Counted from the first letter of the stretch, positions 8,103-8,711 are shown. The stretch: 14,159 nt of DNA from a virus (IMGVR_UViG_2859821903_000004:1-14159), one strand, 5' to 3'. Notes: a model not told the origin generated them from the sequence alone. A program made the numbers and translations.

Positions 8103-8109
8103 ATCGAGC

Positions 8110-8129
8110 TCCTTAGATTTTCCTAAGGA
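8110..8129. promoter_or_regulatory. Candidate operator: 20-bp palindrome TCCTTAG-ATTTTC-CTAAGGA in the divergent promoter region between the Cro-like and repressor genes
   Basis: Perfect 7-bp arms with a 6-bp spacer. A further CCTAAG half-site lies at 8148-8153, and the same CTTAGG core recurs downstream at 8660-8667 and 8695-8702. Confidence 0.45.
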
Positions 8130-8178
8130 AACTAGATCGTAGAGAAACCTAAGCCAAGAAAAATTAGAATTCCCTAAT

Positions 8179-8586
8179 ATGAAAAACGAAACCTTCGGTG
8201 CTCGCCTCTTACATAGGCGTAAAAAATTAAAACTGTCTCAGGCCGCATTAGGTAAGCTGGTCAAAGTGGCTCACGTAACAATTTCTCAATGGGAAAGAGA
8301 TGAAACACAGCCGGCGGGGAAAAGATTATTCGCACTGAGCCAAGCGCTTCAGTGCTCACCGACTTGGCTTCTTTTTGGGGATGAAGATAAACAACCAGGC
8401 GAACCGATCCCGGATAATCAGCCAGCCATTCTGACAGAAGATCAAAAAGAGTTACTTCAACTGTTCGACGCACTGCCTGAGTCAGAGCAAAAGGCCCTGT
8501 TGTCAGAGATGCGTGCTCGAGTTGAAAATTTCAACAAGCTTTTTGAAGAACTACTCAAAGCTCGCAAAAGAAGCGCAAACAAATAA
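8179..8586 (+). CDS. dicA: DicA-like HTH (XRE-family) repressor, 135 aa, lacking a peptidase domain
   Basis: N-terminal XRE HTH (LKLSQAALGKLVKVAHVTISQWERDETQPAGKRLFALSQALQCSPTWLLFG). The 135-aa length and divergent arrangement with a Cro-like gene match DicA of Qin-type prophages. The start has little 5' leader and no obvious SD. Confidence 0.8.
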   Translation: MKNETFGARLLHRRKKLKLSQAALGKLVKVAHVTISQWERDETQPAGKRLFALSQALQCSPTWLLFGDEDKQPGEPIPDNQPAILTEDQKELLQLFDALPESEQKALLSEMRARVENFNKLFEELLKARKRSANK

Positions 8587-8659
8587 TCCCCTTTTTTCTC
8601 CACACCCTGTAATAAAAAGCACAAACTTTCAAACACTTGTGTTTTTTACATCAAAAAAA

Positions 8660-8711
8660 CTTAGGTTTTTCTACATAAAATCTTGACCCCATACCTTAGG
8701 TTATTCTAAAT
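8660..8711 (+). promoter_or_regulatory. Candidate sigma70 promoter (-35 TTGACC 8683-8688, -10 CTAAAT 8706-8711, 17-bp spacer) flanked and overlapped by two 14-bp direct repeats CTTAGGTT(T/A)TTCTA
   Basis: Repeats at 8660-8673 and 8695-8708 match at 13 of 14 positions and share the CTTAGG core with the operator palindrome at 8110-8129. The second repeat overlaps the -10 region. It lies upstream of the small ydfA-like ORF. Confidence 0.35.

Follow-up and report, generated by a model that had tools for sequence, protein, structure and literature searches.

The closest described system is the immunity region of the cryptic Qin prophage of Escherichia coli K-12, in which dicC is followed by a divergent dicA, a terminator, a promoter (dicBp) and ydfA, with a DicF-type RNA downstream. 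DicA represses dicC and activates its own gene; it binds the intergenic operator Oc in vivo, a single base change abolishes that binding, and the in vivo assay detected binding at Oc only and none at the neighbouring Om or Oa (PMC3441716). Deletion of dicA derepresses dicBp 22-fold, deletion of dicC leaves dicBp activity unchanged, and the genes form a bistable switch whose spontaneous switching needs DicC; induction of Qin proceeds via the antirepressor Rem, not RecA (PMC10448788). Three operators per promoter are attributed to Bejar 1988 in the citation of that work by PMC10448788, and in databases the DicA site at dicBp has a low-evidence rating and a location given as unknown (PMC7567609). 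Chromatin immunoprecipitation sequencing (ChIP-seq) of K-12 DicC yielded a palindromic motif, TT(A/C/T)G...C(G/A/T)AA, and binding sites at the promoters transcribing dicB and dicF (PMC11430063). The dicA mRNA has a leader of <10 nt (PMC4681348) and dicA is counted among the known leaderless genes (PMC8794815). The host factors YjdC (DicD) and Cnu-H-NS also act at the dic locus (PMC9283627; PMC3441716). Cryptic as it is, Qin retains a working switch, and dicA matters for normal growth (PMC10448788; PMC9283627).

Two further systems offer points of comparison. At lambda OR and OL, repressor and Cro share operators at two promoters, and cI is expressed from PRM, a weak activator-dependent promoter, as a leaderless transcript within a bistable switch. 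The locus described here matches that logic, although the proteins and operators of lambda are unrelated in detail to its own, the operator clusters are 2.3 kb apart in lambda versus ~550 bp here, and the left promoter has three sites in lambda versus two here. In P22 immC, the genes are likewise divergent, with several operators at the early promoters, one rightward and one leftward, and the C2-type N-terminal DNA-binding domain and the P22 Cro fold are shared with our locus at the sequence level. P22 operators are 18 bp long and of the form ATTTAAG-N4-CTTAAAT. The sites described below are 20 bp long and of the TTAG-N6-CTA type, with a half-site unlike that of P22, and thus are not P22-type operators.

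In this study, we examine a stretch of viral DNA of 14,159 bp, hereafter the window. Its two regulatory regions hold five operator-like sites that are exclusive to them within the window, lie in a regular geometry, are conserved among relatives and co-vary with the class of DicA. On this sequence evidence, the region is very probably a heteroimmune version, of the Qin/PPompW lambdoid type, of the K-12 dicC-dicA-dicBp switch, organized in the OR/OL style of lambda and P22.

Gene layout of the immunity region

The region, located in a genome of the E. coli/Shigella type, is the immunity switch with which a dormant virus is turned on or off. The segment is 98.5% identical to a prophage of E. coli FDAARGOS_943 and ~94% identical to PPompW-type prophages of O26:H11 and O157:H7, in which the counterparts of the two switch genes carry the annotation dicA and dicC. 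As in K-12, a dicC-like gene, a divergent dicA-like gene, a terminator-like hairpin, a promoter and a ydfA-like gene follow one another. The divergent pair encodes a P22_Cro-type protein and a short HTH_3 repressor across an intergenic region of 76 bp, and both reading frames are intact. The dicC-like gene (7875-8102, minus strand) encodes a Cro analogue of 75 aa that matches Pfam P22_Cro (E = 3e-13) and the P22 Cro structure 1rzs (E = 2e-7), and that also aligns with K-12 DicC.

The dicA-like repressor gene (8179-8586, plus strand) encodes 135 aa, the length of DicA in K-12, and its product matches HTH_3 and related helix-turn-helix families of Pfam. Residues 2-69 align with the N-terminal domain of P22 C2 (1adr; E = 1e-21). 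The protein is 62% identical to DicA of Qin, with a conserved C-terminal half and a diverged helix-turn-helix (LSQAALGKLVKVAHVTISQWE in the window versus HTQRSLAKALKISHVSVSQWE in K-12), and is 100% identical to DicA of many prophage contigs. The Pfam search of the 135 residues returned helix-turn-helix families only and no peptidase S24 domain, the C-terminal autocleavage domain that makes P22 C2-type repressors SOS-inducible. Lacking this domain of RecA-dependent cleavage, the DicA-like protein would be induced via an antirepressor, as by Rem in Qin, or by another route.

Downstream of dicA lies an A+T-rich hairpin (8613-8648, plus strand; AAAAAGCACAA ... TTGTGTTTTTT) with 12-nt arms that are 92% complementary and a T run behind it. 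The hairpin probably terminates dicA transcription and insulates the downstream promoter; the terminator scan made no call at 8613-8648, which we attribute to the low G+C content. Judged by eye, two relatives (L077 and L079) retain a hairpin after dicA with changed stem sequences. Beyond the downstream promoter, the first gene of the operon is ydfA-like (8789-8941, plus strand; 50 aa; Pfam DUF1391, E = 2e-29).

The operon continues with a DicF-like element carrying a terminator hairpin (9129-9184, plus strand), which a relaxed Rfam search matched to DicF at 28.6 bits (E = 4e-4), against a gathering score of 48; at gathering thresholds, Rfam reported no DicF in the window. The terminator scan placed a terminator-like site at 9147-9184, and the RNA (match 9129-9179) keeps the terminator stem and a single-stranded 5' part. 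By its sequence, then, 9129-9184 reads as a diverged DicF, below the family threshold and so invisible to default annotation.

Further downstream, the window differs from K-12 in carrying an isrK/C4/Ash-Rha module in place of dicB and in the insertion of IS1. The IS1 copy occupies 9271-10038: an uninterrupted relative (L033) joins window position 9270 directly to 10039, and comparison with it identifies a 9-bp target duplication at 9262-9270 and 10039-10047. IS1 thereby separates the DicF-like terminator from the isrK/C4/Rha module. A tblastn search of the window gave no significant match to DicB, YdfB, YdfC or YdfD, the single DicB alignment having E = 0.061. Rfam matched isrK (64.7 bits) and the C4 antisense RNA (78.6 bits) at 10191-10379, inside the 5' part of an open reading frame at 10140-10979 that carries Phage_ASH and Phage_pRha domains. 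This frame resembles an antirepressor module under antisense-RNA control and may offer an induction route for the non-cleavable DicA-like repressor; alternatively, its N-terminal part may have been mis-called over the RNA genes. Elsewhere in the window, an ALIL pseudoknot (Rfam, 116 bits; 2635-2751) is the frameshift element of an IS3-family insertion sequence with open reading frames at 2354-2680 and 2677-3567, and 11103-12277 is another IS3-family element. Such a load of insertion sequences suggests a Shigella-like or heavily decayed prophage.

Operator-like sites and predicted promoters

Three candidate operators lie between dicC and dicA, centred at 8119.5, 8145.5 and 8170.5, and two lie at the downstream promoter, centred at 8667.5 and 8702.5. 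The first, O1 (8110-8129), is the counterpart of Oc in K-12 and the 20-bp palindrome TCCTTAG-N6-CTAAGGA to which an earlier note on this DNA had drawn attention; the palindrome is perfect, TCCTTAG-ATTTTC-CTAAGGA (TCCTTAGATTTTCCTAAGGA). Its left arm overlaps the dicC Shine-Dalgarno sequence AAGGAG (8114 to 8109), and it sits directly downstream of the predicted dicC -10 element, spanning the predicted dicC transcription start at ~8122. The other two intergenic sites had gone unlisted. O2 (8138-8153, minus strand; CTTAGGTTTCTCTACG), the counterpart of Om, lies within the spacer between the -35 and -10 elements of the predicted dicC promoter and is 93% complementary to positions 8660-8674 of the downstream site OB1. 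O3 (8163-8178; ATTAGAATTCCCTAAT), the counterpart of Oa, was found by motif match; it is a palindrome of the form ATTAG-N6-CTAAT that abuts the dicA ATG and includes a -10-like TAGAAT (8165-8170), 8 nt before that ATG.

At the downstream promoter, the earlier note had described two 14-bp direct repeats bracketing the promoter. Both 14-mers are present (CTTAGGTTTTTCTA at 8660-8673 and CTTAGGTTATTCTA at 8695-8708), but the pair is better read as imperfect inverted-repeat operators belonging to one family with the intergenic sites. OB1 (8659-8676, plus strand; ACTTAGGTTTTTCTACAT), identified by motif match and class conservation, does lie upstream, 6 nt from the -35 element TTGACC. OB2 (8694-8711, plus strand; CCTTAGGTTATTCTAAAT, TTAG-N6-CTAA by motif match) does not close a bracket; it takes up the promoter spacer and runs into the -10 element.

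The five sites account for every occurrence of their gapped motif. In the 14,159-bp window, TTAG-N6-CTA is found at five sites (8 strand hits) against 0.76 expected, a number reached in 0 of 200 shuffles, and nowhere beyond them. A search with the 14-mer allowing up to 3 mismatches gave 6 hits versus 1.43 expected (1 of 200 shuffles), all within the two regulatory regions. Counted on its own, the hexamer CTTAGG shows no excess in the window (4 hits versus 4.3 expected); all 4 copies nonetheless fall within these two regions, and the pentamer CTTAG is present 5 times in ~230 nt of regulatory DNA versus 4 times in the other 13.9 kb.

The comparison with K-12 concerns both the letters and the spacing. 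In K-12, Oc is TTGTTAGTCATAACTAACAA, with the core TGTTAG-N6-CTAACA versus CCTTAG-N6-CTAAGG in the window, and the dicBp region reads TGTTAGCTATAGCATACA, then TTGACC, then GTTAGTCATGGCTAATC. The motif TTAG-N6-CTA matches Oc, Oa and the promoter-proximal dicBp site of K-12, and O2 of the window is a much better operator match than K-12 Om. Spacing is nearly the same: 26 and 25 bp between the intergenic sites of the window versus 25 and 25 bp in K-12 (Oc to Oa 50 bp, with Om between), and 35 bp between the downstream sites in both (8667.5 and 8702.5 in the window; 1886.5 and 1921.5 in the K-12 locus, L001). In the window, the two regulatory regions hold CTTAG 5 times and GTTAG not at all; the module thus lacks the K-12 specificity (TTGTTAG-N6-CTAACAA) and appears heteroimmune to K-12.

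The promoter scan called neither a dicC nor a dicA promoter, and both were positioned by alignment with K-12. The predicted dicC promoter (8129-8157, minus strand) consists of a -35 element TTGGCT (8157 to 8152), a 17-nt spacer and a -10 element TAGTTT (8134 to 8129), placed from the sequence and its alignment with TTGACT-17-TATCTT of K-12. The scan did find the downstream, dicBp-like promoter (8683-8712, plus strand), which is sigma-70-like. In agreement with the promoter proposed earlier, TTGACC at 8683-8688 is followed after 17 nt by CTAAAT at 8706-8711; the scan itself chose TAAATT at 8707-8712, with an 18-nt spacer. Both the TTGACC -35 element and the overall arrangement recur in K-12 dicBp (TTGACC-17-TAATCT). 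Transcription would start near A8719.

At dicA, no Shine-Dalgarno sequence precedes the ATG at 8179, as is also the case in K-12, and the 20 distinct upstream contexts collected from relatives are uniform in having no Shine-Dalgarno-like sequence (20 of 20). Most of these contexts have a TAnnnT hexamer 8-9 nt before the dicA ATG. Both features fit an mRNA that is probably leaderless or nearly so. No recognisable -35 element was seen upstream of dicA, as would be expected of a promoter that depends on an activator.

Conservation also marks the ydfA transcript leader (8718-8788), across genera as well as heteroimmune classes. Its parts are CATCAAG, a hairpin ACACC-GCAC-GGTGT (8725-8738), GTTCCGCTA and a hairpin CCCC-N8-GGGG (8760-8775); in some relatives, a hairpin with a GAAAGA loop recalls lambdoid boxB. 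A nut-like or otherwise structured element at 8719-8788 drew little support, the consensus fold being a helix of 4 pairs with negligible covariation.

Operator cores across heteroimmune loci

By alignment of DicA, 99 related loci were fetched; they fall into 24 groups of N-terminal sequence and about six heteroimmune classes of DicA, from Escherichia, Citrobacter, Symbiopectobacterium and others. Among representatives, the operator core shifts together at the Oc position and at both downstream-promoter sites, tracking the DicA helix-turn-helix. CCTTAG is the core at both promoters in the class of the window itself (SQAALGK...AHVTISQWE), TGTTAG in the TQR... classes and a TTGAG type in the ISLWE classes; L019 and L015 have TAAC-N4-GTTA at both promoters, and L016 and L017 have cores of the CTTAAC types. 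In a table of 5-mers, the intergenic regions of CTTAG-class loci hold 2-3 copies of CTTAG and 0 of GTTAG, and those of GTTAG-class loci show the reverse.

Several statistics were applied to this co-variation, all of them weakened by the shared ancestry of the loci and by the A+T-rich background. Among 16 loci, none of 20,000 permutations did as well as matching each Oc to the downstream region of the same locus, a result that overstates the evidence because these loci are related by descent. A deliberately crude comparison of 12-mers without alignment, in which a single representative stood for each specificity group, gave 7 of 720 permutations and so is of modest significance, and a fixed-frame score over 14 operator positions suffered from noise, owing to shifts of 1-2 nt in some classes. 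The clean evidence comes from the 5-mer core table and from the phylogenetic footprint within the window's own class.

This class (class 1) comprises 61 loci, which supply 20 distinct sequences of the intergenic region and 36 of the downstream one. Across the 61 loci, the CTTAGG...CTA blocks and the TTGAC of the -35 element hardly vary, and all five operators of the window match the class consensus; O2 is conserved in the class and OB1 is nearly invariant among the 36 distinct sequences. The 6-7 nt between the -35 element and the operators are hypervariable, and those between the -35 element and OB2 differ in almost every class-1 sequence. This contrast between sites and spacer is a phylogenetic footprint and points to selection on the sites as such. 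Conservation of O3 extends even to classes with other Oc cores, and in OB2 the left arm varies with the class of DicA whereas the right arm, which is the -10 element, is fixed. As O3 and the right arm of OB2 are kept across specificities, their conservation partly reflects constraint on the -10 element and start site of the promoter, not operator function. The geometry is shared as well: in the window, in K-12 and in most other classes for which a palindrome was called there, exactly 49 nt separate the end of the palindrome from the dicA ATG.

The search among related immunity regions that had been proposed as a check on the motif thus returned a nearly invariant motif within the class and a parallel change of core in the others. 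The idea that one regulator serves both promoters draws support, at the level of sequence, from this class conservation, from the co-variation and from the layout of the K-12 homologue. As a model, it restates what has been published for DicA, DicC and dicBp (Bejar 1988; Yun 2012; Ragunathan 2023) and is not new.

Two further observations emerged from the comparison. The dicC -35 element of the window (TTGGCT) is peculiar to it: 19 of the 19 other distinct class-1 sequences have T at the equivalent of 8154, and 18 of the 19 have TTGACT, the exception (L031) having a different neighbouring change. The single, window-specific change at 8154 makes the predicted -35 element of dicC weaker and could bias the switch toward the DicA state. 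A group of relatives (L094 and L095-L101) has a mosaic immunity region, at 2420-2905 of L094, in which a dicC almost identical to that of the window is combined with a DicA N-terminus and outer operator bases of the TGTTAG type, and a CCTAAG half-site is kept at the O2 position. Such mosaics suggest recombination within the switch.

A predicted bistable switch and its alternatives

As we picture it, the short, non-cleavable DicA-like repressor, with its helix-turn-helix of the P22 C2 type, would bind as a dimer to operators of 16-20 bp with the core (C)CTTAG-N6-CTA(AGG). O1 is predicted to cover the transcription start and ribosome-binding site of dicC, O2 the spacer of its promoter, and O3 the -10 element and start of dicA; OB1 and OB2 flank the -35 element of the promoter predicted to drive ydfA and the DicF-like RNA. 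Occupancy of O1/O2 and of OB1/OB2 would turn off dicC and an operon of the leftward-early type, and the same occupancy would sustain transcription of dicA from its weak, activator-dependent promoter. DicC, the Cro-like protein, would turn dicA off by binding to these same TTAG-N6-CTAA cores, most likely with O3 as its key site, and the two actions combined would yield a bistable switch. Binding, repression, autoactivation and the leaderless transcript are here carried over by analogy from the K-12 experiments, and we infer the site preference of each protein and the transcription start sites. DicA may also form a bridge between the operator clusters, over ~550 bp, with its own gene in the loop.

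A different assignment of the sites has a real but minority claim. Under it, DicA alone would read the class-specific outer bases (CC versus TG before TTAG) and DicC only the shared inner TTAG-N6-CTAA, so that the downstream sites would be essentially those of DicA, DicC would act mainly at O3, and the shared regulator would be DicA alone. The mosaic locus L094 speaks for such a division: its DicC has 4 differences from that of the window in the first 60 residues, with helix 2 identical and helix 3 near-identical, and yet its operators are of the TGTTAG type and its DicA has a different, TQR-type helix 2. In the same direction, the start of DicA helix 2 (S-Q-A versus T-Q-R) and the outer base agree in each of 12 representatives, although these derive from few independent lineages; the recognition helix of DicC shows no such agreement, and helix 3 of DicA is identical in the S-Q-A and T-Q-R classes. 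The ChIP motif of K-12 DicC spans the inner TTNG...CNAA only (PMC11430063), and the indifference of K-12 dicBp to loss of dicC (PMC10448788) would be expected if DicA alone acted there. Against it, the same ChIP-seq study reported DicC sites at the dicB and dicF promoters (PMC11430063). The specific proposal that a single operator is read in part by DicA, whose helix 2 would contact the outer bases with its first residues, and in part by DicC, which would see the inner core only, is slightly more doubtful still. If it were true, immunity specificity would be exchangeable through the 5' end of dicA and a few outer operator bases, with dicC kept, as in L094.

Decay of the prophage raises another alternative, namely that the sites are intact by descent only and that the switch is dead in a cryptic prophage ridden with insertion sequences, with no present regulatory role. 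The IS1 copy in the operon, the further insertion sequences in the window, the absence of dicB, ydfB, ydfC and ydfD and the unique change from TTGACT to TTGGCT in the dicC -35 element are what such a relic would show. Taken together, the IS1-cut operon, the missing dicB and the weakened dicC promoter indicate that the switch may have lost its original output. That the switch itself is dead is nevertheless improbable, given that the dicA and dicC frames are intact, that the DicA protein is shared without a change by many prophage contigs, that all five operators stand at the class consensus and that K-12 Qin is equally cryptic with a working switch and a dicA important for growth (PMC10448788; PMC9283627).

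Chance similarity in A+T-rich promoter DNA, compatible with the chance-level count of bare CTTAGG, and sites for host factors such as H-NS/Cnu or YjdC (DicD), which do act at the K-12 dic locus (PMC9283627; PMC3441716), are both rejected as highly implausible, since the gapped motif is confined to the five sites (0 of 200 shuffles) and a host factor of fixed specificity cannot explain cores that vary with the phage repressor class within one host genus.

The preferred reading, a heteroimmune counterpart of the K-12 switch, adds little that is new beyond documenting the CCTTAG specificity; a full-text search of the accessible literature found no paper containing the exact operator sequences of this class. 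By the sequence comparisons, the CCTTAG operators represent a second, uncharacterised immunity specificity of the widespread DicA/DicC switch, borne by PPompW-type prophages of O26 and O157 enterohemorrhagic E. coli and related strains. The comparison across classes also supports the location of the DicA sites at dicBp-type promoters, for which the database evidence in K-12 is low. For annotation, the ydfA/DicF-like operons of such prophages would be placed under repressor control. The heteroimmune series as a whole is a natural experiment on which residues of DicA and DicC read which operator bases.
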